A DNA stretch of 64,000 nucleotides, taken from contig CP084166.1 of the NCBI GenBank assembly GCA_021513695.1, positions 736,001 to 800,000 of the forward strand, written 5' to 3'. The DNA comes from Candidatus Heimdallarchaeum aukensis (GTDB lineage: Archaea; Asgardarchaeota; Heimdallarchaeia; Heimdallarchaeales; Heimdallarchaeaceae). The notes beneath the pieces were generated by a model that was not told where the DNA came from, did not search any database, and saw nothing but the letters and a program-made list of their open reading frames with translations. Shown piece after piece: positions 1 through 64,000 of this stretch (position 1 is its first letter; each line of letters begins with the position of its first letter). The translations under genes and the position numbers were made by a program.

Positions 1-972
1 GAATATGAAGGATACGAAGAAAAAATAATTAAACTACGCAATGAATTCGGTAATTTATCTTTTAGCGACTGGACACAGAATTTTTACTGGCAATGGCTTT
101 TTTCCTTACTTCCTTTACTTGAAGAGAAAGGAGAGGGATATCCGGGCTACATGCAAAGTGATGCTTGGACAGATAAATCATTAATGACAGCTTTAGCTTC
201 ATGGGCAGAATTAAAACACGATACCATACTTTATGCGAAACAGGCCTATGCAGCAAAAGTTTCATTACCTGAAGGAGTATACAATTACGTTGAACCTTAT
301 CCTGAGATATATTCAAGGATTGCAGCAACTATATCTATGCTGAAAGAAGGATTAGAAAAAAGAGGTTTGTTATACTCTGACGAATACAACGACTTTGAAA
401 CAAAATTCGATGAATTAATCACTATTATGAATAACTTAACAGCTATCAGTATAAAAGAACTTGAAAATCAGCAAATTACAGAATATGAACAATACTTTAT
501 ACAAAGAACAGGAAAAAGTTTACTGTACATCTCAGTTATTAATGGAAAAACAGGCGATGAACTTACTACAGAAACTGATAAACGCACTGCAATTATTGCA
601 GATGTTTTTACAGAACCAAATAGCGGACAAGTTCTAGAAGTTGGAATAGGTAACCCATACTTAATTTATGTTGTTGTTCAAGATCACAGAGGAAAACTAT
701 ACCTTACCAGAGGAGTAACCTTTTCTTACTATGAGTTCAAACAACCTATGTCTAACAGATTAACAGACGAGGAATGGCAAGAAATGTTAGAAACTTCTCC
801 TCCAGATTTGCCTGAATGGATAAAAGAAAATTTGCCTATTGTTCAAATCGAAGACAATGAAGTGCAAGTTAAACAATTGGTCCTACAAGCATCAGATAAT
901 CAAATAAAGATAAAAAAAGTTAGAAATCAAGGAGATAATTATTGGAATTATGCTATAAAAAGGCACGACTGA
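1..972 (+). CDS. hypothetical protein, 5'-partial (frame open to window start; ORF track shows 151..972)
   Basis: Frame 1 has no stop codon from nt 1 up to the ATG at 151, so the gene continues upstream of the window. The translation is globular-looking with no recognisable catalytic motif. Confidence 0.5.
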   Translation, partial: EYEGYEEKIIKLRNEFGNLSFSDWTQNFYWQWLFSLLPLLEEKGEGYPGYMQSDAWTDKSLMTALASWAELKHDTILYAKQAYAAKVSLPEGVYNYVEPYPEIYSRIAATISMLKEGLEKRGLLYSDEYNDFETKFDELITIMNNLTAISIKELENQQITEYEQYFIQRTGKSLLYISVINGKTGDELTTETDKRTAIIADVFTEPNSGQVLEVGIGNPYLIYVVVQDHRGKLYLTRGVTFSYYEFKQPMSNRLTDEEWQEMLETSPPDLPEWIKENLPIVQIEDNEVQVKQLVLQASDNQIKIKKVRNQGDNYWNYAIKRHD

Positions 973-1558
973 AATCACCCAAGGGGTCAGTGATTCCTTC
1001 AGATTTTCTAACTACAATAACCATTTTTTTTATCCCCATTTCCTCGACTTTTTGAATTTTATCTTTTATATCATCTAAAAAGCCTATAAATTGATTGTTC
1101 AGAATTTCCTCTTTAGTTTTTCTTTTTTCTTCAGGAACTCTCTTATTGATTTTTTCTATTAATTTATCCAATGATTCTTGACTATTTACCAAAGTGATTG
1201 TGTTGAATAATGATACCTCAAATTCTTTTGGGTCTCTGTCGTAATGCTCTAATCTCTCATTTATGTACTGGACTTTTTCTTCTAGCTCTGTAAGAAGAAT
1301 ATAAGGGAGATTTAGTCCATCTGCTTCTCTACAAGCAATATTAATCATTCTTTTTCCAGAAGAACCGAGAACGATTTGAGGATAAGGTTTCTGAATAGGT
1401 TTAGGAAAATTTCTATTACGCTCAAGTTTCCAGAATTTACCGCTAAAATCAGTAACATCTTCAGTAAACAATTTTTTATAAATTGTGAGTGATTCTTCTA
1501 ACTGATCGACTCTCTCTTTTGGTGAAGGAAAAACATTTAAATAATTTCGTTTACTTAG
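953..1558 (-). pseudogene. truncated luciferase-like monooxygenase (LLM, flavin/F420-dependent oxidoreductase) C-terminal fragment
   Basis: The ORF 953..1471 starts at TTG and the frame stays open upstream to a stop codon at 1559-1561. The translation ...VDQLEESLTIYKKLFTEDVTDFSGKFWKLERNRNFPKPIQKPYPQIVLGSSG... matches the conserved middle/C-terminal LLM region (E-ALEI-KLWTEE-VSF-G-Y-L----PKP-Q-P-PPI--GG). About 130 N-terminal residues of a normal ~330-aa LLM are absent, and only ~60 nt separate the stop from the next gene. Confidence 0.5.
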
Positions 1559-1618
1559 TTACTATATGAAAATAAAAAAAAACATATAAAAGAACTAACA
1601 ATATTATTTAGTTTATTT

Positions 1619-3271
1619 TTGAGTTCAAGTTTAATATCTGCGGATACAGCACCCATTTTTTTCGACATAACAATCATTTCTCCCAACACTTGTCCAGCGC
1701 GAAACCAATGGGAACCTCTATTAGATCAGATCTTACCCCAAATAGGAATAAATGTTACTCATGTATATATTAACTGGGGCTTTATCTCTGAAAGAACATG
1801 GAATTATCCAGTAGGTGAAGAAGGATATGAAGATCATATACCATCCTATGAAAAAGGAGGATACGACATACTTACAATTGGATGGGGGTGGGATTTTGAT
1901 TGGGATCCAACAGGATTATTCGATTCAGCTTCAATTGTCCCAAATGGAGATAACTTTTACCAGTATAACAGTTCAGAATTTGACAATACTCTAGAAGAAT
2001 ATTTATCAGAATTTGAACTCTCAAAAAGAATAGAAAAAGCAAAGGAGCTTCAATCAATATTATATAATGATTTACCTTCAATTGCTGTTTTCTATCCTCG
2101 AGAAAAGAGTTTCTACTTACATGGTGTCTCCAATGTTGATTTTGAATTACTAGAACAGGGTATTCCCAGAACAGAATATTGGAAAAACAGTGAAAAGAAT
2201 AATATAACATATATGACATATTATGATTTTTATTCTCCTAACTTGTTTCTAAAAGATAATTATATTGAAGAAATAATGGGTAATATTATTTTTTATGGAC
2301 TTTTTGAGAGAGCACAAAATACACATTTGTATGAACCAGTTATTGCTCAGAATTATTCTATATCAGAAGATAAGAGAATTATCACTGTTGATATTAACCA
2401 TGGCGCTTATTTTAGTAATGGAGATCCTGTAACTGCTTATGATGTAGATTTTAGTTATGAGCTGTTTATGACACCTGGAGTACGTGATTACCTTTATTCA
2501 TATTACAATACTTATGATTTACTAACAACATACTTTGAGAACAATGATAGTATTCGAGTTATAGATGAGGATACTGTTCAATTCGAATTCAAAGAACCTT
2601 ACATTTTCTGGCCATACTTATTAAGTATGGATATTGTAAACAAGAAGTTATTTGAAGAATATATTGAAGATAATGGTTACAACTTTGATACCAATAATCA
2701 AACATTGTTTATTGGAGCAGGTCCATTCACTTTAAATGAAACTACAGATTATAATTTAGAAAATCAAACAGTAACTTTACATAAAAATGAATACTGGAAA
2801 TTAACTGAGAAAATCAATCTTGATTCTATTATCTTTCAATGTAAAATCTATAGTAACGATGCAACAGATAAAATTGAAAATAAAGAAATAGATATTATTG
2901 ATGATCTTTACAGATATTTAGATATTCTAGTAAACAACACAGAGTGGGAAAGCACAGAAATTAGAACAACAGGATACACAGAATTAACGATCAACATGCG
3001 CCATCCAATTTTAGGAACAGGAGAACTTACACCTCTCGGAACTGCAGAAGCAGCTAATAATATCAGAAGAGCAATAAGCCATTCTATAAATAGAGAACAA
3101 ATTATAGAAGAAGTGTTAGAAGGGCTGGGTAAACCAGGAGTTGTACCTTTATCAGAATTGTGTATAGGTTTTGATAGTACTCTTACACCTTACTCCTACA
3201 ATATCACATTAGCTAAATCTTTAATGGAAGAAGCAGGATACAGTTTGAGCATATCATTAAAAAAGCTGTAA
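1619..3271 (+). CDS. extracellular solute-binding protein, family 5 (peptide/nickel ABC SBP-like); true start probably ATG 1566 with a frameshift in an A9 run
   Basis: Residues resemble SBP_bac_5 segments (YNSSEFDNTLEEYLSE..RIEKAKELQSILYNDLPSIAVFYP and ...GDPVTAYDVDFSYELF...). The called start is TTG and the product has no signal peptide. ATG at 1566 plus one extra base in the A9 run (1574-1582) would give MKIKKKHIKELTILFSLFLSSSLISADTAP..., a typical signal peptide. Confidence 0.5.
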   Translation: MSSSLISADTAPIFFDITIISPNTCPARNQWEPLLDQILPQIGINVTHVYINWGFISERTWNYPVGEEGYEDHIPSYEKGGYDILTIGWGWDFDWDPTGLFDSASIVPNGDNFYQYNSSEFDNTLEEYLSEFELSKRIEKAKELQSILYNDLPSIAVFYPREKSFYLHGVSNVDFELLEQGIPRTEYWKNSEKNNITYMTYYDFYSPNLFLKDNYIEEIMGNIIFYGLFERAQNTHLYEPVIAQNYSISEDKRIITVDINHGAYFSNGDPVTAYDVDFSYELFMTPGVRDYLYSYYNTYDLLTTYFENNDSIRVIDEDTVQFEFKEPYIFWPYLLSMDIVNKKLFEEYIEDNGYNFDTNNQTLFIGAGPFTLNETTDYNLENQTVTLHKNEYWKLTEKINLDSIIFQCKIYSNDATDKIENKEIDIIDDLYRYLDILVNNTEWESTEIRTTGYTELTINMRHPILGTGELTPLGTAEAANNIRRAISHSINREQIIEEVLEGLGKPGVVPLSELCIGFDSTLTPYSYNITLAKSLMEEAGYSLSISLKKL

Positions 3272-3932: not shown

Positions 3933-5750
3933 TTATAATCTTCTCTTAAAGAAGTCTAAAAATAATTTTAGAGTTCTAATCCTCATACTTATATCAGAAT
4001 ATGCACCATGCCCCTCTTCTTTAAATTCAACATATTCAAAGGTTTTTTCTCCTTCTTTACCTTCTTTCCAGCCTAATTCAATAAGTTTGTCTCTGAATTG
4101 TCTACTCTCATCTACAGGACATCTAGGATCGTTTACACCATGAATCATTTGAATTGGAGCTTTGATTTTCTCGATATGTGTCAAAGCTGATCTATCTTCC
4201 CATAATTCTTTATTCTCTTCGTATGTTCCCATGTGTTGATTAAGGAAAAACTTGAAATGTGGTTGAGATTTATCATACATTGTTTTTAGATGTGATATAC
4301 CTATCCAAGCTGAACCTGCTTTCCATCCTGCGTCCGCATATTTTGTTAATTGCAAGAAAGTCATATATCCTCCATAAGAACCACCGAAAACACCTATTCT
4401 TTCATGGTCAACGTATTCTAGTTTTTCTAGGTATTTTTTGGCGTATACAACATCTTTTGCATCTCCTCCACCCCAATCCATTAGGTTCATTTCTTGAAAC
4501 TTCTTTCCATAACCTGTACTTCCTCTGATATTCGGGCATAGAATAACAAATCCTTCGTGGGCAAATACTTGAGACATTATATCAAACATTCTGTAGTATT
4601 GACCAGTAGGTCCTCCATGAACATGTACTAAAGCAGGATATTTCTTTCCCTTTTCTATCTTTGGAGTAGTAAGAGTAGCAGCTATTTCCATTCCATCAAA
4701 GGAAGGATACTTGATATATTGCATGTCATAAAAGTCTTCTTCAGTAAGATCAGTTTGAGGAGGAATAATTATTTTTTCTTCGTCAGTCTCTAAATTATAC
4801 ATTGCTAGGCTTGTAGGCATTTTGGGTGCACTTCTAAGATAAATCAGATATTTATCGTTTAGAGCAAACTGAGTATAGTAAGCTATTCCTTCAAAGTCTA
4901 GTTCTTTTTTGTCTCCAGTCTCTAAATCGTAAATTATAGGTCTCATTTCTGCTTCTTTATTTTGAAGAACTGCTAGTTTCTTTCCATCCTTAGAAAATTC
5001 AACGGCGAACTCTTCATATTTTCCATCACTTAACCATTTTACTTCTTTTGTTTCTGTGTCAAATACTCCTGCTTGGCTTACACCTGTACTGTCGCTTGTA
5101 ACCGCTAGATACCGGCCATCTTCAGAAATATCAGAGAACTGATCATTTGAAACATCTGAAACTCTAAATACTAAATCAGTTTCACTTCCATCAGCTTTAA
5201 TAGCCCAAACATCAGAATTTTTTATATTATAGGTATCATTAAAATTGTAATAAATCCAACCATTTTTACTCCAGCTAGCTTTTCCCCAAGTAGGTTTATC
5301 ATGAGCTGTAAGTTGCTTGACCTCTTTACTATCTAAATCCATAATGAACAAGTTAAGTTGTCCATTTCTCGTAGAAGCAAAAAGAAGACTTTTTCCATCA
5401 GGACTTATTGCATGAGGATATTCTTGCGCTTCTGGAGTTTCAGTTAATTTAATACTCTCTTTTGTTTCTATGTTAAATAGGAAAATATCATGCATTTCAT
5501 TTCCATCTTTGTCTCTGGTATAGGTAATATGTTTACTATCTTTTAACCATACATACCCTGCGCGTATGGCTCGAGGAAGTTCTCCATCTGTAACTTGTTT
5601 ATAATCTAATGATTTTAAATCTAAAATATAAAATTCATTTCTTTTTGTTTTATTCCAATAAAATCCAAGCAAATTTTTTTCTTTATTTGTTTTTAACATC
5701 ATCATGCTTGGTATTGAAGCTAACTTTTCTACCGTAATTTTCTTGGTCAT
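3933..5750 (-). CDS. S9 family serine peptidase (prolyl oligopeptidase / acylaminoacyl-peptidase type)
   Basis: The N-terminal half is beta-propeller-like. The C-terminal alpha/beta hydrolase carries GGSYGGY (nucleophile elbow GxSxGG), a downstream Asp/His and HGxxD. ATG start. Confidence 0.85.
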   Translation of the reverse strand: MTKKITVEKLASIPSMMMLKTNKEKNLLGFYWNKTKRNEFYILDLKSLDYKQVTDGELPRAIRAGYVWLKDSKHITYTRDKDGNEMHDIFLFNIETKESIKLTETPEAQEYPHAISPDGKSLLFASTRNGQLNLFIMDLDSKEVKQLTAHDKPTWGKASWSKNGWIYYNFNDTYNIKNSDVWAIKADGSETDLVFRVSDVSNDQFSDISEDGRYLAVTSDSTGVSQAGVFDTETKEVKWLSDGKYEEFAVEFSKDGKKLAVLQNKEAEMRPIIYDLETGDKKELDFEGIAYYTQFALNDKYLIYLRSAPKMPTSLAMYNLETDEEKIIIPPQTDLTEEDFYDMQYIKYPSFDGMEIAATLTTPKIEKGKKYPALVHVHGGPTGQYYRMFDIMSQVFAHEGFVILCPNIRGSTGYGKKFQEMNLMDWGGGDAKDVVYAKKYLEKLEYVDHERIGVFGGSYGGYMTFLQLTKYADAGWKAGSAWIGISHLKTMYDKSQPHFKFFLNQHMGTYEENKELWEDRSALTHIEKIKAPIQMIHGVNDPRCPVDESRQFRDKLIELGWKEGKEGEKTFEYVEFKEEGHGAYSDISMRIRTLKLFLDFFKRRL

Positions 5751-5875
5751 TTCTACACCTTGTTAAAATATTTTTTTTAACCTTAATTCTCCTTTAATAC
5801 TTATATATTTTAGCTTTTAACTATAAAATTTTGAAAAATAGGAATATTATTAAAAAAGAAATCCTTCTTTAAATT

Positions 5876-6397
5876 ATGAATTATGAGGATATGGTTCTTA
5901 AAGCTAGAGAAGAAAAAGATAAGTTCTTTAGAAGTCATCCTTATTCGCCCTTAACAACTGAACAAAAAAGGAATTTCAAAGGGTTGAATTATTTTGAACC
6001 AGACATTTCCTACAGATACGAAGTTGAAATTAAAAAATATGAAGATCAAAGGAAAGTTTCTATTCGAACTTCAAAAGGTACTGTTCAAGATTACATCAGA
6101 TGGGGATTTATCGAATTCGAAAGAGATGGCAAAATAAATATTTTAAGCGTTTTTAAACAAGAAGGAGAAAATTATTTTTTCATTCCTTTTAAAGATAAAA
6201 CCACCGGAAAGGAGACCTATTCTGCAGGTCGATATATAGAAGTAGAGGATCTAGGTGATAACATATACTTGCTAGATTTCAATTTTGCTTACAATCCTTA
6301 TTGTGCTTACAATGATAATTGGGTTTGTCCATTAACACCTTTTGAAAATACTTTAGAAATAGCAATTGAAGCAGGAGAAAAAAAGTTTCACGAATAA
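5876..6397 (+). CDS. DUF1684 family protein
   Basis: Matches the DUF1684 pattern (HPYSPLT..., FNFAYNPYCAYNDNWVCPLTP). ATG start. Confidence 0.6.
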   Translation: MNYEDMVLKAREEKDKFFRSHPYSPLTTEQKRNFKGLNYFEPDISYRYEVEIKKYEDQRKVSIRTSKGTVQDYIRWGFIEFERDGKINILSVFKQEGENYFFIPFKDKTTGKETYSAGRYIEVEDLGDNIYLLDFNFAYNPYCAYNDNWVCPLTPFENTLEIAIEAGEKKFHE

Positions 6398-6429
6398 AAT
6401 AAAAAAAAGTTAAAAAACTTAAAGATTAA

Positions 6430-7356
6430 TTATTTTAATTCTTTTAGAGCTTCTATTACTTTTTCAGCAACTTGAACGCTAGCTCTGTAATTTCCTTCAA
6501 GTGTTTGAGCACCTATATGAGGAGTCATAATTACATTGGGGTGTTTTAGGAGTTTGTTTTCTTCTTTAGGAGGTTCTTTTTCAAAGACATCAGTAGCATA
6601 TACAGCTAGTTTTCCTTTTTCTAAAGCTCGGTAAGCTGCTTCTTCGTCAACAACTCCTCCTCTTGCACAGTTAATGAGAACTACATTTGTTTTCATTTTC
6701 TCAAAAGCTTCATCTGAAATCATATGCCTTGTTTCATCAGTTAGTGGAAGATGAAGGCTGATGTAATCTGCTTTTTCAAAGACCTTGTCAATTGAACTTT
6801 GTAGGTCTATAACTCCGCTTTGTTTGATATACGCATCATATCCTATGGTTTTCATTCCGAGTGCTTTAGCTTTTACAGCTAAACTTGATCCTATTCTTCC
6901 TGTACCTATAATTCCTAATGTTTTTCCTTCTATTTCAACTGAAAATAATTCTTTTTTTAGTTTTTTAAATTCTGAAGGATTTTTTCTCAATCTTTCTGTT
7001 CCTGTTACTACTCGTCTGGTAGCTGCTAAAATCATAGTTAAAGCTAGTTCTGCAACTGAATTAGTTGTAGCATTTGGAGTGTTAATTACTTTTATTCCTC
7101 TTTCTCTTGCTGATTGTAAATCTATATTATCTAATCCTACACCAGCTCTACCTATAACTTTAAGATTTTTTGCTACTTCTAGTAGATGCCCTTTAACTTT
7201 AGTAGCAGACCTTACAATAATTGCGTCATATTCAGGTATAATGTGCTCTAATTCTTCTTTAGGTACATCCCAGGCTTTTTTTACTTCAAAACCTTCTTTT
7301 TCTAGCATTTCTACAGCTACTTCATTCAACTTATCAGCTATTAGTACTTTAAACAT
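6430..7356 (-). CDS. serA: D-isomer-specific 2-hydroxyacid dehydrogenase (D-3-phosphoglycerate dehydrogenase-like, no ACT domain)
   Basis: Rossmann motif GIIGTGRIGS, a catalytic R/E/H arrangement, and about 308 aa. It lies next to a class-V aminotransferase. Confidence 0.8.
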   Translation of the reverse strand: MFKVLIADKLNEVAVEMLEKEGFEVKKAWDVPKEELEHIIPEYDAIIVRSATKVKGHLLEVAKNLKVIGRAGVGLDNIDLQSARERGIKVINTPNATTNSVAELALTMILAATRRVVTGTERLRKNPSEFKKLKKELFSVEIEGKTLGIIGTGRIGSSLAVKAKALGMKTIGYDAYIKQSGVIDLQSSIDKVFEKADYISLHLPLTDETRHMISDEAFEKMKTNVVLINCARGGVVDEEAAYRALEKGKLAVYATDVFEKEPPKEENKLLKHPNVIMTPHIGAQTLEGNYRASVQVAEKVIEALKELK

Positions 7357-7366
7357 TTAATTCACC

Positions 7367-8577: not shown

Positions 8578-10533
8578 CTAAAACTCAATAAATGGTAAGA
8601 AAATAGATACTTTCGTTCCAACATGATGAATGCTATCTATAAATATTTGTCCATCATGTAATTCTACAAGATTTTTTGTTATATACAAACCTAACCCTGT
8701 TCCTTCACTTTTTTCAGCTTCATCTGTTCTGAAAAAGGGCTTGAAAACATATGGGAGATCATGACTAGGGATACCAATTCCATGGTCTTGAATCTGAATG
8801 AGTAATCCTTTTCTGTTATCAGGATTATATTCACCTACATAATCTTTGATAACTGTAACTTCGATTTTAGAATTACTTAAAGAATATTTTATTGCATTAT
8901 CTAAAACATTGGATATTATCTGCTTAATTCTTTTTGGATCACCAAAATACTGAATATCTTTTGTTTCGAATTTCTTTTCTAACCTAATTTTTTTGCTTTT
9001 TAATTGTTCTTCAAAACTTCTTATTGTCGAATTAATGTTTCTAATAATATTAAACTTCTTTTTCTCTACTTTGAATCTATTATTTTCTATTTTAGAGACT
9101 ACAAGTAAATCTTCAATTAATGTTGTTAAAAGATCTGCACTTTCTTCCATTACTTCCAAGGTAGAGAAAATCTTTCTTTTAGGTAATCTTTCCCAGTATT
9201 TTTTAAGAAATTGAATACTCAAACTTATAGATGTAATGGGAGTTCTTAATTCATGACTGACAGAAGAGATAAAGTTTTTTCTTAGTTTATCCAAAGTAAG
9301 AAAGGGAGTAATATCTTGAAATTCTATTAGAGCACCTATAAAACTCCCAGAAGAGGTGATATTTACTCCTGAGACCTGAATAAAGAAATTTTCAGACAAC
9401 TCAAATGTATCACAGACTTTTTCTTTTTCTATTATTAATTCTTTAATAAAGGAGAATAAAGGGTCGTCTTTAAACTTTTCAGAAAAGATATTTAATGATA
9501 ATAAAGGTTCTTTATCTTCGGGATAGAGAACACGATAGAATTCTTCAAATTTCTTATTAAATAGACTAAAATTCCCTTCATCATCAATCAACAACAAACC
9601 AGGTGAAACTGTTTCAAAAATTGCTTCAAGTTTTAGTTTCTCTTCTAAAAGTTCTTCATTTTTTCGCTCTACTATCATTGATAATTCAGAGCTTGTTTCT
9701 TTTAGCTCTTTTTCTCTTTCTACATGTTTAGTAATATCTGTTGCAACCCCTAAAGCTGCTATCTCACCACTTGGTAATTTAATAGGAATCTTTCTTACTT
9801 CAATTGTTCTTTTTTCTCCAAAGGCATCAGTAAAAGAGCTTGTAGTTTTTATCCTACTTTTAGTATCTATTACTTTCCTATCATACTTTAAGAAATAATC
9901 AGTTTCACTCTTTACAGGTTGTATATCATGCTGAATAGAACCCTCAATCTCGCTTATTGGTAAATTAAAACGGTCTGCTAAAGCTTTGTTAGCTAATAGA
10001 AATCTCCCTTCTTCATTTTTTACAAAAATCATTTGTGGAACTTGATCTATTACTTCTCTTAAGATATTTTTATTGAATTCGAGTTCCATAATTTCATCCA
10101 ATTTTGATGAAAAAGAAGAAGCTACAGCAACATGACAATCATTGGACGAGTTAAAAATCACTTTTAGTTTTACAGGTAGTCTTTTTCCTTCTTTTGCAAG
10201 TAAAAAAGTTACAAAAGTAAAAAAACTTTTTTTTGAATCTGATAACTTTAAATAATATTCCAAATTTTTTTCTTTGTCTTTCTCTTCGAAATACTCATTT
10301 ATTTTTTTTTCAAGTATGATAGACTTCTTAACTCCTATAAGATCTTCAGCTCTTTTGTTTATATAAAGAATGGATAGATTGTTATTAAAAACAAAAATTG
10401 CTTCTTCTAAACTATCAAAACAAGATAGAATATCTTCATATTTCAGCTTTAATCCATCTACTCTAGCAGATTCGTTTTCTGTATTTTTATTTTTTTTATT
10501 TGAAGATACATCATTGGAAAAAAGATTACTCAA
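8578..10533 (-). CDS. sensor histidine kinase with multiple PAS domains
   Basis: Three PAS-like segments are followed by HisKA (SHELRTPITSI) and an HATPase_c N/G-box region (NAIKYS, DHGIGIP, GTGLGLYI). TTG start sits 3 nt after the response-regulator stop. Confidence 0.85.
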   Translation of the reverse strand: MSNLFSNDVSSNKKNKNTENESARVDGLKLKYEDILSCFDSLEEAIFVFNNNLSILYINKRAEDLIGVKKSIILEKKINEYFEEKDKEKNLEYYLKLSDSKKSFFTFVTFLLAKEGKRLPVKLKVIFNSSNDCHVAVASSFSSKLDEIMELEFNKNILREVIDQVPQMIFVKNEEGRFLLANKALADRFNLPISEIEGSIQHDIQPVKSETDYFLKYDRKVIDTKSRIKTTSSFTDAFGEKRTIEVRKIPIKLPSGEIAALGVATDITKHVEREKELKETSSELSMIVERKNEELLEEKLKLEAIFETVSPGLLLIDDEGNFSLFNKKFEEFYRVLYPEDKEPLLSLNIFSEKFKDDPLFSFIKELIIEKEKVCDTFELSENFFIQVSGVNITSSGSFIGALIEFQDITPFLTLDKLRKNFISSVSHELRTPITSISLSIQFLKKYWERLPKRKIFSTLEVMEESADLLTTLIEDLLVVSKIENNRFKVEKKKFNIIRNINSTIRSFEEQLKSKKIRLEKKFETKDIQYFGDPKRIKQIISNVLDNAIKYSLSNSKIEVTVIKDYVGEYNPDNRKGLLIQIQDHGIGIPSHDLPYVFKPFFRTDEAEKSEGTGLGLYITKNLVELHDGQIFIDSIHHVGTKVSIFLPFIEF

Positions 10534-10535: not shown

Positions 10536-11441
10536 TTAATCACCTTGAATAGGTAGGACTGTAAGTATTTCTTCCCAAGCTTTCTTTATATCCCATTTTT
10601 CTTCATTTTTAACCTTATTTGAATAAGGAGCTAGTATTTCTTCCAATCTTTTAGTAATTATATAATCAATCCTTGGAGCAATAACTACAAGCATAAATGG
10701 TATTTGCTGAGATAAGCTTTCAAAATCCTCATACGCATCAATGTATATATAACAAGCCATACCTATATTTTCTAAAAACAAAGGCACTCCCTGGGGATTT
10801 GTTACTTTTAATTCTCCATATACAGAGATAATAGTTTGAAAGATTTGAACGCCTAAACTATCTAATTCAATTTGTTGTTCTATTTTCTTGGGAAAATAAT
10901 CTACTGGCTGAGGGCCCAGCACATCATGCCATTTAATTAAAAGCAAAAAAACAGAATCTTTTGAATAACTATATATACTATCATGAGCCATTAAATTCTG
11001 ACTTAACTCTAAAGTTATTTTCTTCTTTAGTTCTTCTCTAATTTGATAATTTAATTTTCTTTTAGCTAACTTTCCTTCAACTATTGCTATCAAATCTTCT
11101 TCTTTGAAGGGTTTAATTATATAATCATCTATTCCCAAAGATTTACCATATCTTACTGACTCTGGGTCACTTTTAGCAGTAAGAAAAACAAAAGGAATGT
11201 CAAAAAATCTTTCATCTCTTGAGATTTTTTCATATAGAGAATAACCATCCATTCCTGGCATCATTATATCACAAAGAATAAGATCAGGGGGTCGAGTTAG
11301 ATTTTCTAACAAAGTTAATGCTTCATCTGCACTCTGGGCTAAAACAGGAAAGTAGTCATACATAGATAAAATACTGTCTAGTAAATACAAGATTTGCTTA
11401 TTATCATCAATAATTAAAATCGTTCCTTTCAAATTATCCAA
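10536..11441 (-). CDS. response regulator: REC domain plus ~170-aa C-terminal domain of unknown function
   Basis: REC motifs ILIIDDN, the phospho-acceptor D in LILCDIMMPGMDG, and K in DDYIIKPF. The C-terminal half is not an HTH; it may be roadblock-like. TTG start. Confidence 0.8.
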   Translation of the reverse strand: MDNLKGTILIIDDNKQILYLLDSILSMYDYFPVLAQSADEALTLLENLTRPPDLILCDIMMPGMDGYSLYEKISRDERFFDIPFVFLTAKSDPESVRYGKSLGIDDYIIKPFKEEDLIAIVEGKLAKRKLNYQIREELKKKITLELSQNLMAHDSIYSYSKDSVFLLLIKWHDVLGPQPVDYFPKKIEQQIELDSLGVQIFQTIISVYGELKVTNPQGVPLFLENIGMACYIYIDAYEDFESLSQQIPFMLVVIAPRIDYIITKRLEEILAPYSNKVKNEEKWDIKKAWEEILTVLPIQGD

Positions 11442-12934: not shown

Positions 12935-13164
12935 CTAAAGGGCTATTATAGCATTGGATATTTTCATACATTTTTATCGCTTGAAAGTAAACTGATTTTC
13001 CATATAATATTAAGTTTCCAATCCCTAAATAGTATTCTTTTATATATTTTTTTTATTTTTTGATTAGCACAAAAAAGATATAATATTTTACTTATTTATA
13101 GAATAAATGTCAAGAAATTGTGGAAAATAAGTCCTTAAAACCAAGTTTTATGATTTTTGTTAAA

Positions 13165-33238: not shown

Positions 33239-34219
33239 GTGATGCGTTTGAAAATAATCATTACAACAGAAACTGGAGAATTGCTATTTTCATATGATTC
33301 CTTTACTGAAAATAGAAAATACGATAACGTACTGATTACTGGGTTGATTTCTGCAATTGTGGTTCTATCCAATGAAGTAGTTAGTTCTTTTCCAAGAGAA
33401 ATCGAATTTGAAGGAAAAATTCTTTATTTTTATAGAGAAAATGAATTTATAGCAGCTTTACTTGCAGATATAGAGTCACCTTTTAATGGTAGTATTCTTC
33501 CAGTTATTTTAGGAGAATTTAAGAAAGTACAAGAAAAACATGGCTTTCCTACACATAAAGCAATGAGATATGACAAAGAAATTGCTTATGCAGTAAAAGA
33601 TTGTTTAGCCATGTATTTAGCAAACATGCAGAAAAAGATGGTCAAATTATTAGATGACACAGATGTAGCGGATTACAATTCAATTATAAAAGTTAAAGCT
33701 GTAGCTAAAGATTTTTTGAAAGATGCAGCTCAATTTTTGCCTATTGATTTAATTTGCAGAATGATTCCTGATGGAATGGATAAAATTCTTTATAGTTTGA
33801 TTGTAGGTATTCCTATTGTAATTTCAGGAAACAAAGATATTGTTGAGCAGTTAATTAATAGTCTAAGAATGCTTTGTCCTACAAGAATTTTAAAAATAAA
33901 ATTTTGGTCAGACAAATATATTACAGGATATGACATTATAGGAACAAATGACATAAAAATAGTTAAACCTTCACTTTATCAATTGTACATTGATATTAAT
34001 AACGGAATAGTTTTAGGGGGTAAATCATCACAATATTTCAAAGATATTGAATGTCAAATATGTAATCTAAATACTGTAGAAGCTTTTAACTTCATAAGAA
34101 GCGAGTTGAATTGGATTTTCCAAGCATTCGAAGAATTAAAAATAGATGTTTTTTCTAAAAAATCACTACCACTTGAAAAACAGCTAATTTTGTTTGAACT
34201 TTTAAAAAGGTTACATTAA
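33239..34219 (+). CDS. hypothetical protein with N-terminal longin/roadblock-like fold
   Basis: Residues 1-100 show a beta-alpha-beta-beta pattern (KIIITTETGELLFSY / ITGLISAIVVLSNEV / GKILYFYRENEFIAALLAD). The remaining ~220 aa are unassigned. Confidence 0.4.
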   Translation: MMRLKIIITTETGELLFSYDSFTENRKYDNVLITGLISAIVVLSNEVVSSFPREIEFEGKILYFYRENEFIAALLADIESPFNGSILPVILGEFKKVQEKHGFPTHKAMRYDKEIAYAVKDCLAMYLANMQKKMVKLLDDTDVADYNSIIKVKAVAKDFLKDAAQFLPIDLICRMIPDGMDKILYSLIVGIPIVISGNKDIVEQLINSLRMLCPTRILKIKFWSDKYITGYDIIGTNDIKIVKPSLYQLYIDINNGIVLGGKSSQYFKDIECQICNLNTVEAFNFIRSELNWIFQAFEELKIDVFSKKSLPLEKQLILFELLKRLH

Positions 34220-38016: not shown

Positions 38017-38961
38017 TTGACAAAAAGGATTTTAGTAACTGGTAGTTACGGACAAATTGGTCAAGTTCTTGTTCCTGCTCTAATGAATAGATATGGAAAA
38101 GAAAATATTATTGCAACAGGAAGAAAAAAGATTCCTTCAGTTTTTAAAGAAAAAGATGTTCATTATCATCGATTGGATGTTCGAGACTTAGCACAAATGC
38201 AGACTCTTCTCGTTGAACACGATATCGATATCTTAATTCATAATGCATCTGTTCTTTCTGCTACAGGAGAAAAAAATCCTCAACTTGCACATTCAATTAA
38301 TTTTGAAGGTTTTTATAATGCTTTAGAAGCCACAAGAATGCTAAATCTTGAACAACTTTTTGCTCCAAGTTCTATTGCAGCTTTTGGCCCATCTACTCCA
38401 AGAGAGAATACTCCTAATGATGTAATCACTCGACCTACTACAATATATGGAATAAGTAAAGTCTATATAGAGCTAATGGGAGAGTACTATCATCAGAAAT
38501 ATGGTTTGGACTTTAGATCTCTTCGTTATCCTGGAGTAATTTCTCCTGAAGAACCTGGCGGTGGAACAACAGATTGGGCAATATGGATTTTCTGGGAAGC
38601 TTTACGTAATAAAAAATACACTTGCTTCTTAAAAGAAGATACTTCTCTTCCAATGATGTATATGCCAGACTGTATTAAATCCACTATTGATTTAATTGAA
38701 GCAGATAATTCAAAGCTTGAACATCGTTCATTTAATGTAACCGCATTTAGTTTAGCTCCCAAAGATTTAGTAGAACCTATAAGAGAGGTTATTCCTGAAT
38801 TTAAAATAGCATATGAACCTGATTTTAGACAACAAATTGCTGAATCTTGGCCAGCTTCAATTGATGACAGTGTAGCTAGAAAAGAATGGGGTTGGAAACC
38901 TGATTACGATATTCCTGCTATGACAAAAGATATGCTAGAAAAAATATCCAAAATGATTTAA
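38017..38961 (+). CDS. NAD-dependent epimerase/dehydratase family; L-threonine 3-dehydrogenase-like
   Basis: Rossmann motif VTGSYGQIG and a YxxxK (YGISK) in SDR-extended context. Length 314 aa. Confidence 0.75.
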   Translation: MTKRILVTGSYGQIGQVLVPALMNRYGKENIIATGRKKIPSVFKEKDVHYHRLDVRDLAQMQTLLVEHDIDILIHNASVLSATGEKNPQLAHSINFEGFYNALEATRMLNLEQLFAPSSIAAFGPSTPRENTPNDVITRPTTIYGISKVYIELMGEYYHQKYGLDFRSLRYPGVISPEEPGGGTTDWAIWIFWEALRNKKYTCFLKEDTSLPMMYMPDCIKSTIDLIEADNSKLEHRSFNVTAFSLAPKDLVEPIREVIPEFKIAYEPDFRQQIAESWPASIDDSVARKEWGWKPDYDIPAMTKDMLEKISKMI

Positions 38962-46332: not shown

Positions 46333-47229
46333 ATGCCATTAGTAGAATGTGTTCCTAATTTTTCGGAAGGAAGAAGAAAGGAAGTTGTAGACAAAATTGT
46401 AGAAGAGATTCAAAAAGGTGGAAAAGTTACTTTGCTTGATTCAAGAATGGATCCTGACCATAATCGTGCAGTAGTAACTTTCATTGGAGAACCACAGGAA
46501 TGTTTTAAAGCAGCATTTGCAGGATGTAAAAAAGCTGCAGAGCTCATAGACATGGACCAACATACTGGAGAGCATAACCGATTTGGTGCCACAGACGTAA
46601 TTCCATTTATTCCTATAAGTGACATCACTATCGAGGAATGCGCAGAACTTGCAGATAAGCTTGCTAAGAAAATTGGTGAGGAATTAAATATTCCTACTTA
46701 TCTCTATGGTGCAGCAGCCAAAAGACCAGAGCGTGAAGTTCTTCAGAAGTATAGAACAAAATCATTCCAATATGAACAACTAAAAGAAGAGATAGCTACT
46801 AATCCTCTTTACGAACCAGATTATGGTCCTAAAGAAGTTCCAAAGGCAGGAGCTACAAATGTTGGTGCAAGAGAGTTTTTGATAGCTTACAACGTCTATC
46901 TTGATACTAATGACTACGAAATTGCAGCAAAGATTTCAAGAGCAATACGTTTCAGTGGAGGAGGATTAAGGTACATTCAAGCTGGTCCTATGGAAATAAA
47001 AGAGAGAAATTGTGTTCAGGTTAGTATGAATATTACAAACTACAAAGGAACGCCTATTCATAGAGTTTTAGAAATGATTAAGCGAGAAGCTGCACAATAT
47101 GGAGTAAATGTTACTGAGACTGAAGTTTATGGAATGATTCCATTAGATGCTTTGCTTGATGCAGCAATTCATTATCTTCAATTACACAACTTTGATAAGC
47201 AACAAATAATTGAAAAAAGAATAGAATAA
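46333..47229 (+). CDS. glutamate formimidoyltransferase (FtcD N-terminal formiminotransferase domain), stand-alone
   Basis: MPLVECVPNFSEGR... is the hallmark N-terminus of the formiminotransferase domain. Confidence 0.8.
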   Translation: MPLVECVPNFSEGRRKEVVDKIVEEIQKGGKVTLLDSRMDPDHNRAVVTFIGEPQECFKAAFAGCKKAAELIDMDQHTGEHNRFGATDVIPFIPISDITIEECAELADKLAKKIGEELNIPTYLYGAAAKRPEREVLQKYRTKSFQYEQLKEEIATNPLYEPDYGPKEVPKAGATNVGAREFLIAYNVYLDTNDYEIAAKISRAIRFSGGGLRYIQAGPMEIKERNCVQVSMNITNYKGTPIHRVLEMIKREAAQYGVNVTETEVYGMIPLDALLDAAIHYLQLHNFDKQQIIEKRIE

Positions 47230-47230
47230 G

Positions 47231-47881
47231 GTGAAAAAAATGGGAGAAGAATTACTAATTAATAAAAAAATAGTAGATTTCTTAGATGAACTTGCTTCAG
47301 ATAGCCCTGCTCCTGGAGGAGGTTCTGCGGCTTGTATAGCTGGAGCAATGGGTGCGTCTCTTGGTTCAATGGTTGCCAGACTAACCATTGGTAAGAAGGG
47401 ATATGAAGAAGTAGAAGAGTTTTTCAAAGAGAAACTAGAAAAAACAGAAGAACTAAGAAAAGATTTAACCAATCTAGTTGATAAAGACGCCAACGCTTTT
47501 TCAGGAGTTATAGAAGCTTTTAAGATGCCTAAAGAAACTGAAGAACAAAAAGCTGCTCGTTCTGCAAAAATTCTAGAAGAGTATAAAAAAGCAGCTGAAG
47601 TTCCAATGCTAACTTGTAAAAAATGCCGAGAAGTCATAGATTTATTGGCGGAAATGGGTACTAAAGGAAATAAAAACGCTCTTTCTGACATTGCAGTAGG
47701 AGCTCTATGTGCATTAACTGGTCTACGTTCTGCAGCTCATAATGTAGAAATAAATCTCGGATACATAAAAACTAAAGATGCAGAATATGCAGACAAGATG
47801 TACAAAGAGCTAGAAGAACTTCTAGAAGGAATAGAAGAAAAAGTTAACAAACTTGATGAAGACGTAAGAGCAACATTCTAG
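47231..47881 (+). CDS. formimidoyltetrahydrofolate cyclodeaminase (FtcD C-terminal domain), stand-alone
   Basis: The ASDSPAPGGGSAACIAGAMGASLGSMVARLTIGKK cyclodeaminase/cyclohydrolase signature. The start is 1 nt after the previous stop. Confidence 0.8.
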   Translation: MKKMGEELLINKKIVDFLDELASDSPAPGGGSAACIAGAMGASLGSMVARLTIGKKGYEEVEEFFKEKLEKTEELRKDLTNLVDKDANAFSGVIEAFKMPKETEEQKAARSAKILEEYKKAAEVPMLTCKKCREVIDLLAEMGTKGNKNALSDIAVGALCALTGLRSAAHNVEINLGYIKTKDAEYADKMYKELEELLEGIEEKVNKLDEDVRATF

Positions 47882-47923
47882 TTTTCTTTTTTTTTAAAAA
47901 TTTATTTTTAATTAAGAAAAAAT

Positions 47924-48514
47924 ATGTTTTTAAGTACATCTTTTTCTCTTTTTTTAATGAATAAATCTCTTAATTACGAGGCAATAAAATTAGAGCTGAT
48001 TCCTTTAGATGCACCTATCAAAAAAATTCCAGAACTTAAACTTGGTACTGTACTTATTCCTATCTTTCCCTCTAGCAACCAAATAATGTTTACAAAAAGA
48101 TCCAATAAAATGAAAAATCATCCAGGGCAGATATCTTTTCCTGGGGGAGCAGTAGAAGAAGGAGAGACAATCGTAGAAGCTTGTCTACGAGAAACAAATG
48201 AGGAAGTAGGAATTAATAATGAAAAGATCCAACTTTTAGGTCGTCTACCTCCTCTAGCAACAAGTAGTAATTTTTTTGTTTATCCAATTGTTGGTTTAGT
48301 TGAAAGCGATGTAAAGATTTCTGTTAATCCAGATGAAGTAGAAAAAGTTTTTTTTGTTCAAATTGAGGAACTACTAAACGATAATAACAAAGTAGTAGAA
48401 AAAGAATCGGATTCCTCTAAAACTTATTATTTAGCTGGAAACTACACTATTTGGGGAGTGACCGCTCAGATACTTGAGGAGTTATTCTCAACAATAAATA
48501 AAATAGAAAATTAG
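47924..48514 (+). CDS. NUDIX hydrolase (CoA pyrophosphatase-like)
   Basis: Nudix box GGAVEEGETIVEACLRETNEEVGI. Confidence 0.75.
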   Translation: MFLSTSFSLFLMNKSLNYEAIKLELIPLDAPIKKIPELKLGTVLIPIFPSSNQIMFTKRSNKMKNHPGQISFPGGAVEEGETIVEACLRETNEEVGINNEKIQLLGRLPPLATSSNFFVYPIVGLVESDVKISVNPDEVEKVFFVQIEELLNDNNKVVEKESDSSKTYYLAGNYTIWGVTAQILEELFSTINKIEN

Positions 48515-51715: not shown

Positions 51716-52537
51716 TTAAAATAGAAAAGGTATTAGTGCTTTCCTATTATTTGGGTAATCAGTGAATTTTTCTTGATACCAATTGTGATGAGCTCGGGCT
51801 CTGGGTGCTAAGTTGAAAAATGTCCATAAAGCAAAAACCAATCCAGGAACTGACCAAGTTAATATTGCCCAACCTATCCATTCCATTATCTCTCCAAGAT
51901 AATTAGGAGATGAGACAAACTTGAACATTCCACCATAAGGAATCTTATACCCATCTTTTGCTCCTTTTTCTCTGAGATTGCGGAGAATATGATCTGATTG
52001 CTTGTTAATAAAAAATCCAGTAATAAACATAATAATGCCAATGATAAATTGTGGAGAATAAAACCATGTATTGGTGTACATATTTTCTGGAACAAGGTAA
52101 AAAAGCCATATTCCCTGAATATAAGTATTGAAGAGATTAAAAGTTACTCCAAAGAGCATTATCAATATAGGCATTTTTTTCCTTCCTCTTAACATCCAAG
52201 GATAAATTAGGGCCCGATGAATATAGTGAATTTCAAATATTGCAATAAAGACAATGAAAACTGGATCCTTTATTCTTTCACTTCCAAAAAAGTAAATTGC
52301 CATTAACAATGCGGACGGAAATTCCATTATAAACCAAGCTACTCTATCATCTAAAGTTGGCCCCCATCCTTTTCTTCTATGACGTCCATAGGGTGCTGTT
52401 ATGAAAAACAGTAAGATGAATATTGAAACTCCTAACCCTAAAAAAACGTACATTACAGCTTTAAAATATAAAGGGTTACCAAATACAGAAAGAATAGATT
52501 CCATAAGTGAAGATAGTAAAGACATTATTCTTTTCAA
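51716..52537 (-). CDS. steroid 5-alpha-reductase family / DUF1295 membrane reductase (polyprenol-reductase-like)
   Basis: C-terminal GGMFKFVSSPNYLGEIMEWIGWAIL matches the 3-oxo-5-alpha-steroid 4-dehydrogenase C-terminal signature. 6-7 TM segments. Confidence 0.65.
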   Translation of the reverse strand: MKRIMSLLSSLMESILSVFGNPLYFKAVMYVFLGLGVSIFILLFFITAPYGRHRRKGWGPTLDDRVAWFIMEFPSALLMAIYFFGSERIKDPVFIVFIAIFEIHYIHRALIYPWMLRGRKKMPILIMLFGVTFNLFNTYIQGIWLFYLVPENMYTNTWFYSPQFIIGIIMFITGFFINKQSDHILRNLREKGAKDGYKIPYGGMFKFVSSPNYLGEIMEWIGWAILTWSVPGLVFALWTFFNLAPRARAHHNWYQEKFTDYPNNRKALIPFLF

Positions 52538-59074: not shown

Positions 59075-60376
59075 TTGCAATACTATATTCCAGAATGGGA
59101 CGATATGGTTAGTTCAAGGTATGACTATTGGAATGACACTGAACTACCTGATTCTAGAAAGGTTTATGCACATGAAATTTATCCCAAACCCAACTATGAT
59201 GGAATTTTAGTATCTAGAATGAAGATTGAAGAGAGTAAAACTAAGATTGAAAAAATAAAGAAAGTAGGAGTGCATAGATTTTTCAAGTTCAATGGACCCA
59301 TTTTTGGAGATTGTGGAGCTTGGGGATATATAAATGAAAAAGATCCTCCATTTGAAACAAAAGACATGTTAAATTACTATGAATCTTTTGGCTTTAATAT
59401 AGGTGTTTCCATTGACCACTTATGTATTCCCCAAGTTAAATCAGAATGGTATTATAGACAAGAATTGACACTAAAAAATGCAGAAAAATTTTTCAAATAT
59501 TATGAAAGTGGAGACTATTCTTTTGAAGCAGTAGGGGCAGCTCAAGGATGGGATTTAGAATCGTATAGATATGCAGTGCAAGAATTGCTAGATATAGGAT
59601 ATGATTTTATTGCCTTAGGAGGATTAGCACGAGCACAAACAGGAATAATTATTAAGATTCTTAAAAATATTCAAGATTTAATTAAAGAAAAGAAAATAAA
59701 GATCCATTTATTTGGTGCTGCAAGATTAGATGGCCTACGTGCATTCAATAATTTAGGAGTAACAAGTTTTGATTCAGCTTCTCCTCTTAGAAATGCGTGG
59801 TTAGGTTCTAAAAAGAATTATAGAGGTTTAGATTGGAAGGGTTATACTGCTATTCGTTTACCTTTCCTTTCAAGAACAAAGAAATATCAAAAGTTAGTAG
59901 AGGAAGGACTATTCACTATCAAAGAGCTAGAAGAATTCGAAAAGTCTATCTACGCTCTCCTAAGAAGATATGAAATAGAAAAATCTAGAAGTCCAGAAGA
60001 AATAATAGAAGCTTTTGAAATGCTCAACCAGACATTTACTTTAAGAGATGATCTTAAAGAAGACTACCTTGAAATCTTGAATGAACGACCATGGGAAAAA
60101 TGCTCTTGTCCTGTTTGCAAAGAAGCAGGAATGGATGTAGTTATTTTTAGGGGGAACAACAGGAACAGAAGAAGAGGTTTCCACAACACCTATGTTTTTT
60201 ATCAATTAATGCAGAAAATTCTTAATGAACCTAATTTCAAAGGAACTCCGCATTTAAATTTAATAAATGAAAAAGATTTTTCAATTCCAATTCAAGTTCA
60301 AGCGAAAAAATTAAAATCCAAATTTAACAAACAAACAAAAATTGATAATTTTATAGAACAAATAAGTGAGGAATAG
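59075..60376 (+). CDS. tRNA-guanine-transglycosylase (TGT) superfamily protein, divergent (possible DpdA-like transglycosylase)
   Basis: The TGT zinc site CSCPVCKE...(22 aa)...H (CxCxxC-H). An SFDSASPLRNA segment aligns to the TGT catalytic FDCVLPTRN region. ALGGLA resembles the GLAVGE barrel motif. It lacks the FMPVGT N-terminal motif and has no PUA domain. Confidence 0.55.
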   Translation: MQYYIPEWDDMVSSRYDYWNDTELPDSRKVYAHEIYPKPNYDGILVSRMKIEESKTKIEKIKKVGVHRFFKFNGPIFGDCGAWGYINEKDPPFETKDMLNYYESFGFNIGVSIDHLCIPQVKSEWYYRQELTLKNAEKFFKYYESGDYSFEAVGAAQGWDLESYRYAVQELLDIGYDFIALGGLARAQTGIIIKILKNIQDLIKEKKIKIHLFGAARLDGLRAFNNLGVTSFDSASPLRNAWLGSKKNYRGLDWKGYTAIRLPFLSRTKKYQKLVEEGLFTIKELEEFEKSIYALLRRYEIEKSRSPEEIIEAFEMLNQTFTLRDDLKEDYLEILNERPWEKCSCPVCKEAGMDVVIFRGNNRNRRRGFHNTYVFYQLMQKILNEPNFKGTPHLNLINEKDFSIPIQVQAKKLKSKFNKQTKIDNFIEQISEE

Positions 60377-62952: not shown

Positions 62953-63120
62953 ATGACACAAAAATGGATTTGTACTTTATGTGGCTACATTTATGACCCT
63001 GCCGAAGGAGACCCTGACGGAGGAATCGCTCCAGGAACAGCTTTTGAAGATATCCCTGAAGATTGGGTTTGTCCTGAATGCGGAGCTGCAAAAGAAGATT
63101 TCGAACCCTATGAAGAATAA
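62953..63120 (+). CDS. rub: rubredoxin (55 aa; missed by the ORF track size cutoff)
   Basis: [55 protein letters not shown] carries both CxxCG knuckles and the conserved GDPD..GI.PGT.FED.P.DW core. ATG start, TAA stop. Confidence 0.9.
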
Positions 63121-63142
63121 TAACAAAGTTTTAAATTGTTTT

Positions 63143-64000
63143 TTACAACTTTCTATTTTTTCTTGATAATTGAACTATTTTTTTTATTACTACAAATTCT
63201 GTTTCATTTAGGACGTTTTTTGTGATTTTTATTTTTTCTTGCTGAATTCTTACTTGGTTTGCATATTCATTCTCAACTAATAGCTCCATCTCCTCTGTTA
63301 TCGCTCCATCTACATTTGTTTTAATAACTTCCATGAGGTTATTATATTTTTCTAGTATTTTTTCATAAACAGCTAATTTTGAAGAGAATTTTGATGTATA
63401 CTTATTTATTTCTTCAGCTCGTTTAATGTCTATAGAAGTTAAACTATCAGTAGCTTCAGATAAATCTCTTAATTCTTCTTCACTAAATTCTCTTTTAACA
63501 AAACTTGAAATTATAGAAATAAGTGATTTATCCAGCAAATAATCTGTTTTTCTCTCATAGCTTATACTAGGGATTGATTTTGATAGAGAAGATTTTTTAC
63601 TTTTGAAGGTAGTATCTTTTTTTTCTGTTGTTAAATACTTTTCAACAAGAACTAATTTTTCATTCCACCATTCCTTAAAAGAAAGACCAGGAGTATATTC
63701 AATAGCAAAATTTAGAAAAATTGTTCCTTTAGCTAAAACTGTTGCGCCTATAGGTTTTTTGAATATGGGTTTACTTGTTCTTTTACCTACAAAGTCATAT
63801 GTACTAAAAGAATGAAAGTTTGAGGGAAGATCTTTTGCTTTACCAAAAAAAATTATTTCTTTTCCAAGATTTGCTAAATCTTTGAGATCTCCTAAAGTTA
63901 CTAAATAATCTTCTCCTAACGAAAGATAAACAAGATCATAAGTTTTTTTGGATAATTTTCTAACAGATTCTGGAATAGCTAATTTTTCTGCTCTTTCTTT
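63143..64000 (-). CDS. hypothetical protein, 5'-partial (frame open to window end; ORF track shows 63143..63538 from an internal TTG)
   Basis: The minus-strand frame is uninterrupted from nt 64000 down to the stop at 63143, so the gene starts beyond the window. The overlapping plus-strand ORF 63603..63815 was rejected. Confidence 0.45.
   Translation of the reverse strand, partial: KERAEKLAIPESVRKLSKKTYDLVYLSLGEDYLVTLGDLKDLANLGKEIIFFGKAKDLPSNFHSFSTYDFVGKRTSKPIFKKPIGATVLAKGTIFLNFAIEYTPGLSFKEWWNEKLVLVEKYLTTEKKDTTFKSKKSSLSKSIPSISYERKTDYLLDKSLISIISSFVKREFSEEELRDLSEATDSLTSIDIKRAEEINKYTSKFSSKLAVYEKILEKYNNLMEVIKTNVDGAITEEMELLVENEYANQVRIQQEKIKITKNVLNETEFVVIKKIVQLSRKNRKL

Follow-up and report, generated by a model that had tools for sequence, protein, structure and literature searches.

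A 64-kb archaeal DNA segment with Arf-longin and longin-DENN genes is almost certainly part of the Candidatus Heimdallarchaeum aukensis chromosome

Gene content of the window

The stretch of DNA analyzed here, 64,000 nucleotides long and referred to in its entirety as the window, combines genes of archaeal housekeeping, such as an XPB-type repair helicase followed by its partner nuclease Bax1, with genes of eukaryotic flavor, among them an Arf-family small GTPase carrying a longin-type domain, a folliculin-like longin-DENN protein and a steroid-reductase-like membrane protein (Table 1). The G+C content (GC) of the window is 0.306, and ranges from 0.286 to 0.326 in blocks of 4 kb. A previous sequence-only reading had attributed this mixture to an Asgard, more specifically a Loki-like, archaeon, based on its low GC and on a list of gene families. 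All of the listed features are present, as confirmed for the gene families by profile and structure searches, but the attribution itself stands only in part. We observed identity of proteins to a published genome and collinearity with the genome of a sister species, and, on the strength of these sequence comparisons, the window almost certainly comes from the circular chromosome of Candidatus (Ca.) Heimdallarchaeum aukensis PM71 (Heimdallarchaeia, Heimdallarchaeaceae). Scans of the window for tRNAs and with Rfam returned zero RNA genes, and it hence offers no RNA marker.

Table 1. Features located in the window, with coordinates, strand and the evidence for each assignment
Feature	Coordinates	Strand	Evidence
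Ca. H. aukensis PM71 chromosome segment (almost certain)	1..64000		Exact proteins, Logan alignment, collinearity with H. endolithica; GC 30.6%
Short D-3-phosphoglycerate dehydrogenase-like 2-hydroxyacid dehydrogenase	6430..7356	-	Pfam 2-Hacid_dh_C
Class-V (AGT-like) aminotransferase, UJG41436.1	7367..8446	-	Pfam Aminotran_5; NCBIfam matches all under cut-offs
PAS-domain histidine kinase adjoining response regulator	8578..10533	-	Pfam PAS_4, PAS_8, HisKA, HATPase_c
Response regulator, receiver and C-terminal W-x-D-x-x-G-P motif domain	10536..11441	-	Pfam Response_reg, residues 8-121
Lys/Glu-rich (KEKE) repeat protein, UJG41441.1	14575..16485	-	Translation; exact match
Bax1 (DUF790) nuclease, XPB partner, UJG41444.1	18652..20325	-	Pfam DUF790, 1.9e-43; directly downstream of XPB
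XPB-type DNA repair helicase, UJG41445.1	20340..21746	-	Pfam ResIII, Helicase_C, ERCC3_RAD25_C
Folliculin-like longin + DENN protein	33239..34219	+	Fold comparison and weak Folliculin_C matches
NDP-forming acyl-CoA synthetase alpha-type subunit, UJG41461.1	35406..36782	-	Pfam CoA_binding and Succ_CoA_lig
Arf-family small GTPase with C-terminal longin-type domain, UJG41462.1	36873..37835	-	Pfam Arf, 1e-35
SDR/epimerase-type L-threonine 3-dehydrogenase	38017..38961	+	PDB dehydrogenases, E=1e-108 to 1e-66 (6jyg, 7e-108); exact match
IMP dehydrogenase guaB, UJG41464.1	39105..40541	+	Pfam IMPDH and CBS; exact match
Glutamate formimidoyltransferase (FtcD) + cyclodeaminase-domain gene	46333..47881	+	TIGR02024, 400 bits (cut-off 221); Pfam FTCD_N, FTCD, FTCD_C
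SRD5A-family (3-oxo-5-alpha-steroid 4-dehydrogenase-like) membrane reductase	51716..52537	-	Pfam Steroid_dh, 184 bits
PepD-type beta-Ala-His / cytosol non-specific dipeptidase, UJG41476.1	52587..54074	-	TIGR01893, 507 bits (cut-off 344); exact match
DpdA-type transglycosylase	59075..60376	+	NCBIfam NF041059, 388 bits (cut-off 200); PADLOC DpdA, 352 bits
TPR-containing protein, UJG41485.1	61279..62871	+	Weak TPR_2, TPR_12, TPR_8; exact match

Identity to a published Heimdallarchaeum chromosome

In an exact-sequence look-up, 18 of 20 window proteins proved identical to entries of Ca. H. aukensis lying between UJG41433 and UJG41485, all on one circular contig of 3,081,793 bp. The matched UJG numbers include 41433, 41434, 41436, 41441, 41444, 41445, 41449, 41461, 41462, 41464, 41472, 41476, 41479, 41481, 41484 and 41485; they climb monotonically along the window, from 3.9 kb to 62.9 kb, and the order of the genes is identical to that in PM71. 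No difference from the published PM71 genome was detected among the 18 exactly matched proteins.

At the nucleotide level, contig SRR15988954_605 of Logan, an independent short-read assembly, is 100% identical to window positions 29105-50541. The contig begins at approximately window position 15172, within the gene of the KEKE repeat protein, while the window reads through the repeat, as expected of a long-read-scaffolded closed genome. The closed, 3.08-Mbp circular genome of H. aukensis was reported by Wu et al. (2022, Nat Microbiol; PMC8813620; BioProject PRJNA721962); it originates from an alkane-amended enrichment of Auka hydrothermal vent sediment from the Pescadero Basin, and 76 concatenated markers placed it in the Heimdallarchaeota 'ancient archaea group' (PMC8813620). 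Its NCBI lineage runs through Promethearchaeati (the Asgard archaea), Ca. Heimdallarchaeota, Heimdallarchaeia and Heimdallarchaeales to Heimdallarchaeaceae, whereas Lokiarchaeum is assigned to a separate phylum, Promethearchaeota. The Asgard half of the earlier attribution is thus borne out, and the Loki-like half is not.

Comparison with relatives and behavior of marker genes

From position 29869 to 49478, the window aligns collinearly over 19.6 kb with the genome of Ca. H. endolithica PR6 (CP084167.1), the nucleotide identity being 86.3%. This value agrees with the average nucleotide identity (ANI) of 88% published for H. aukensis and H. endolithica (PMC8813620). The two organisms belong to the same genus and to different species; an indel of approximately 1 kb separates them between window positions 46140 and 46242, and their GuaB proteins are 97% identical in amino acid sequence.

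The sequence-only reading had pointed to the best-match taxonomy of guaB, XPB, pepD and the GTPase as a way to check its attribution, and for these the nearest matches lie overwhelmingly in the Heimdall group rather than in bacteria or Euryarchaeota. The guaB scan covered one genome per GTDB species and was seeded by short patterns, and its results are those among the matches listed. The best of these were H. endolithica PR6 (97%), a metagenome-assembled genome (MAG) labeled 'Promethearchaeati archaeon' (75%) and a Heimdallarchaeota MAG (74%), followed by a tier at 56-60% made up of Aenigmatarchaeota and Nanoarchaeota (DPANN) and of Chloroflexota. With such a second tier beyond the Heimdall group, guaB was rejected as a deep marker; it is a poor one beyond the family level. 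No Loki or Promethearchaeota titles occur among the guaB matches listed, and this absence is weak evidence, since taxa missing from the listed matches of a pattern-seeded scan carry no meaning. The cluster of pepD at 90% identity holds Heimdallarchaeum and Heimdallarchaeaceae names only. The Arf-longin GTPase and the longin-DENN protein have their named relatives exclusively in Heimdallarchaeaceae, Heimdallarchaeota or the 'Asgard group', and no Loki or Promethearchaeota titles appear among the matches of either.

For XPB, identities of 55-89% to Heimdallarchaeaceae and Heimdallarchaeota homologues are followed by a clear drop to a band of 42-50%, which contains Hermod-, Jord- and Borrarchaeal proteins, one protein labeled Heimdallarchaeota (46%), and proteins of Thermoplasmata, Methanohalarchaeum and Methanolobus. 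Promethearchaeota proteins, at 44-45%, fall within the same band as the Thermoplasmata and Methanosarcinales-type matches; by XPB sequence, Loki is no nearer to the window than Euryarchaeota.

Tetranucleotide usage was compared as the correlation of usage deviation. Correlations are 0.96-0.975 with H. endolithica, 0.92 with the MAG whose GuaB is 75% identical, and 0.93-0.94 among the thirds of the window themselves. Two Promethearchaeota-type loci of 17-21 kb (GC 0.37-0.38), which represented that side of the comparison, gave 0.68-0.79, and unrelated low-GC DPANN loci gave 0.78-0.87. Tetranucleotide usage thus points clearly to Heimdallarchaeum; because it cannot separate Promethearchaeota-type from DPANN loci, on its own it is weak evidence against a Loki source.

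In addition, proteins RLG12867, RLG12869 and RLG12870 (DRN69_06355-06370), labeled 'Candidatus Pacearchaeota archaeon', share 90%-identity clusters with proteins encoded at window positions 3933-8446. Their partners in the window are the aminotransferase, a DUF1684 protein and an S9 peptidase, and a contig of 4.6 kb is recorded for two of the labeled proteins. These records probably stem from the mis-binning of a Heimdallarchaeaceae contig into a DPANN MAG.

Weighing of alternative sources

Several points weigh against assignment of the whole window to PM71. The nucleotide-level identity of 100% covers the stretch aligned to the Logan contig and not all 64 kb, two of the 20 proteins (the SRD5A-family reductase and the longin-DENN protein) had no exact match, and some window proteins are also identical to proteins of near-identical Heimdallarchaeaceae MAGs (MHA1... 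accessions). The two misses probably arise from TTG or GTG starts of mechanically called open reading frames (ORFs) that differ from the annotated starts; for the longin-DENN gene, the Logan gene call has 325 residues and the mechanical ORF 326. A very close strain could conceivably be the source of parts of the window. That another Heimdallarchaeaceae strain or population of this kind, rather than PM71, gave rise to the window as such is very unlikely: although MHA1415477.1 equals the GTPase exactly, MHA1115592.1 and MHA1415476.1 equal the ACD-type protein exactly, and nucleotide identity is documented by the Logan alignment and not by the GenBank chromosome, each of the 18 exact matches comes with a UJG accession, these all lie on one 3.08-Mb contig, and several clusters, that of guaB among them, lack any MAG copy. 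Moreover, the KEKE gene is intact in the window, and its exact match is found in NCBI, UniRef and nr only, not in Logan.

A Loki-like (Lokiarchaeia/Promethearchaeia) source is more improbable still. Low GC and eukaryote-like genes would fit Lokiarchaeia, which typically have approximately 30% GC and many eukaryote-like signature genes. Lokiarchaeia and Promethearchaeia, such as Lokiarchaeum, Prometheoarchaeum and the genomes of the two Promethearchaeota-type MAG loci, belong to the same kingdom as Heimdallarchaeum, Promethearchaeati; they share with the window XPB and DUF790/Bax1, and small GTPases of eukaryotic type occur in them too, as do longin proteins and roadblock proteins, with both GTPase-longin and GTPase-roadblock fusions described for the Loki archaeon MK-D1 (10.1101/2020.10.19.343400; PMC10933270). 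Against this stand the exact proteins, which belong to the genome of a Heimdallarchaeum and hence to another phylum, the XPB identities, which favor Heimdallarchaeaceae and Heimdallarchaeota over Promethearchaeota, and the tetranucleotide correlations, which for the two Promethearchaeota-type loci are far below those for Heimdallarchaeum and no better than for DPANN loci; to these may be added the Loki titles missing from the GTPase, longin-DENN and listed guaB matches. The arrangement of the XPB locus also differs. In the same two loci, L062 (10001-16109) and L064 (10001-14973), a class-V aminotransferase gene lies between XPB and DUF790/Bax1, joined in L064 by NifU, and Bax1 is split, with ORFs of approximately 247 and 347 residues, whereas the Bax1 of Heimdallarchaeum is a single protein of 557 residues whose gene abuts XPB. 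Least credible of all is a source outside the Asgard archaea, that is, a DPANN or bacterial contig with mis-assigned proteins. The second tier of guaB matches and the Pacearchaeota-labeled proteins could be read in this way, but the former marks guaB as a poor deep marker, and the latter, found on short contigs and set against dozens of Heimdallarchaeaceae records, are better explained by mis-binning and were rejected as a sign of DPANN origin. In addition, the 76-marker placement of the closed circular genome speaks for Heimdallarchaeota, and the region collinear with H. endolithica disfavors a chimeric H. aukensis assembly at this locus.

With H. aukensis as the almost certain source, the gene mix of the window would be ordinary Heimdallarchaeaceae content. 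It would comprise archaeal housekeeping (XPB-Bax1 and the NDP-forming acyl-CoA synthetase), catabolism of peptides and amino acids, two-component signaling of bacterial type, and eukaryote-like trafficking or signaling proteins (Arf-longin, longin-DENN, a putative receiver-longin and the SRD5A-like reductase). The catabolic genes may serve amino-acid fermentation in which the acyl-CoA synthetase would yield ATP, and longin or DENN proteins may regulate the GTPase. The Arf-longin, longin-DENN and receiver-longin architectures are already known from the Asgard and Heimdall literature, and the window holds one example of each, that of receiver-longin being a putative one. Since the closed genome had been published with its annotation and these architectures had been described, both the attribution and the gene types were known beforehand; in a Heimdallarchaeum, they and the XPB-Bax1 pair are expected for the lineage and are not discoveries. 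The attribution itself adds no new biology, and provides a baseline for the remaining findings in the window, which should be compared with Heimdallarchaeaceae and not with Lokiarchaeia.

The Arf-longin GTPase

The protein previously described as an Arf/Rag-roadblock GTPase is indeed an Arf-family GTPase, with a Pfam Arf score of 123 bits against a cut-off of 22.3, and its C-terminal domain belongs to the longin/roadblock superfamily. This C-terminal part matches Fuz_longin_1 (27.4 bits when searched as an isolated domain), Robl_LC7 and MAPKK1_Int. In a confident AlphaFold2 (AF2) model of the protein (predicted local distance difference test score (pLDDT) of 84, predicted template modeling score (pTM) of 0.83), a helix at the N terminus precedes an Arf-type G domain, and the C-terminal domain is of longin type, with bbabbbaa topology. 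In Foldseek, the model matched best eukaryotic Arf1 and the ArfR structures from Asgard archaea, 8ouk and 8oum (Hod- and Gerdarchaeales). The modeled N-terminal helix spans residues 3-10, and the N-terminal sequence, (M)SKKKISEKLL, has no Gly2, the myristoylation site of Arf proteins with an amphipathic N-terminal helix. Asgard proteins in which an Arf/Rag-like G domain is joined to a longin or a roadblock domain are already on record (10.1101/2020.10.19.343400; PMC10933270).

The longin-DENN protein and its neighborhood

What had been recognized as a longin-like protein proves to be a two-domain one, in which an N-terminal longin fold is followed by a DENN-type alpha/beta domain. The family was seen only in Heimdallarchaeaceae and Heimdallarchaeota. 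Its profile gave no meaningful match to PDB sequences, and its kinship shows only in the fold and in the weak Folliculin_C matches. The GAP-active longins FLCN, SMCR8, C9orf72 and NPRL2 typically carry a 'GP' motif that links longin strands 1 and 2 (PMC12290439), and this motif is absent here; the loop reads TETGELL, where the invariant G13 is followed by a near-invariant Glu (E14) in place of Pro. FLCN-like longin + DENN proteins of Heimdallarchaea already figure in the Asgard eukaryotic-signature protein sets of Liu et al. (2020/21; 10.1101/2020.10.19.343400) and Tran et al. (2024; PMC10933270).

Within window positions 33239-38961, the longin-DENN gene is followed by small membrane-protein genes and then by those of acyl-CoA synthetase alpha (-), the Arf-longin GTPase (-) and the SDR-type (short-chain dehydrogenase/reductase) threonine dehydrogenase. 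The same order recurs in the Heimdallarchaeaceae MAG loci L067 (8001-16801) and L068 (321-9156), whose proteins are only 50-57% identical to those of the window. The small membrane-protein ORFs number four on the Logan contig of the window; one of the MAG loci has three and the other four, and in both an extra gene of approximately 910 codons separates the GTPase gene from the dehydrogenase gene. In locus L069, a more remote member of the family (49% identical) has a gene for a different Arf-domain protein 3.4 kb away, together with a gelsolin gene.

The published Asgard DENN operon consists of a roadblock (LAMTOR1-like) protein, a Rab-like GTPase and a DENN protein (10.1101/2020.10.19.343400; PMC10933270). 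The window differs from it in that approximately 2.6 kb, occupied by the synthetase and membrane-protein genes, separate the longin-DENN gene from that of the Arf-longin GTPase. The two proteins might form a working pair of GTPase and regulator tied to amino-acid catabolism, and thereby be for a prokaryote what FLCN-Rag nutrient sensing is for eukaryotes; we regard this as unlikely, and were it true, the pair would be distinct from the reported roadblock/Rab-like/DENN operon.

Upstream, at positions 30890-33083, a gene for a ParB_N-domain protein (+) lies tail-to-tail with one for a radical SAM protein (-). The latter gave weak matches (E ~1e-13) to the PADLOC models of prokaryotic viperins (pVip), confined to the N-terminal radical SAM core. 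In L067, too, a radical SAM gene precedes that of the longin-DENN protein.

A response regulator with a putative longin domain

The response regulator located beside the PAS-domain histidine kinase carries a C-terminal domain of approximately 180 residues, which has no Pfam match. It defines a family of 123 representatives at 50% identity, with a WDDxxGP motif in which W, G and P are invariant. The regulator of the window reads WHDVLGP at this position, and the motif spacing in the family equals that of W33-D34...G38-P39 in human C9orf72. When the family profile was compared with the PDB, the best match was the longin domain of C9orf72 (residues 30-159, 130 residues); with E=0.17 this match is not significant, and the assignment of the domain as a longin of the GTPase-activating protein (GAP) type is therefore suggestive and not shown. 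No similarity to the longin-DENN family was detected with hhalign (probability 0.4%). Most family members have approximately 295 residues, consistent with an N-terminal receiver, and a few stand alone or form part of proteins of 600-820 residues. Longins of NPRL2-like type that are fused to domains of two-component systems have already been reported (10.1101/2020.10.19.343400; PMC10933270).

Beside the two-component pair, at positions 11531-14553 (-), are two adjacent paralogues of the CitMHS transporter family (467 and 462 residues), a tandem duplication.

Housekeeping, metabolic and other genes

The XPB helicase and its downstream partner, both predicted earlier, are recognized by their Pfam domains and score below the NCBIfam cut-offs: the best match of XPB is repair_heli_XPB (235 bits, cut-off 610), and the endonuclease Bax1 models gave 107 and 96 bits for UJG41444.1. 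Two metabolic assignments had been more specific than the data allow. The proposed ADP-forming acetyl-CoA synthetase alpha subunit scores 443 bits against TIGR02717 (AcCoA-syn-alpha), below the cut-off of 567, and membership in the NDP-forming acyl-CoA synthetase alpha family is thus confirmed while the substrate is not established. In the pair read as a class-V phosphoserine aminotransferase beside serA, the class-V aminotransferase does adjoin a phosphoglycerate dehydrogenase (PGDH)-like gene. The product of the latter scores 354 bits against TIGR01327 (PGDH; cut-off 454) and covers model positions 1-303 of 525; from this adjacency alone, UJG41436.1 is possibly a phosphoserine aminotransferase. 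The epimerase-type threonine dehydrogenase was recovered as described. As for the predicted amino-acid-fermentation genes, the window encodes, besides PepD and FtcD, the S9 peptidase, a class-III aminotransferase and a saccharopine-dehydrogenase-like protein, all attributable to peptide and amino-acid catabolism.

The SRD5A-family reductase, also named in the sequence-only reading, is related to PDB entries 7c83 (E=4.6e-67) and 7bw1 (E=1.8e-49). The KEKE-tailed and TPR proteins are likewise present. Tandem repeats in the KEKE gene occupy positions 14599-15278, with units of 9, 12, 24, 45 and 72 bp; Pfam detected no domain in the protein at E<0.001, although its NCBI name is 'universal stress protein'.

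DpdA proteins ordinarily introduce 7-deazaguanine into DNA. Around the DpdA-type gene of the window, PADLOC found no further defense-system component or Dpd gene, and the neighbors encode an alpha/beta hydrolase and the TPR protein.

Near the start of the window, an ORF for a luciferase-like monooxygenase (953-1471, -) begins with TTG and covers profile positions 140-262 of 314. Its absent N-terminal part would overlap an SBP_bac_5 gene on the opposite strand (1619-3271), whose product has no obvious signal peptide, and the ORF may be a gene fragment or the scar of a rearrangement.

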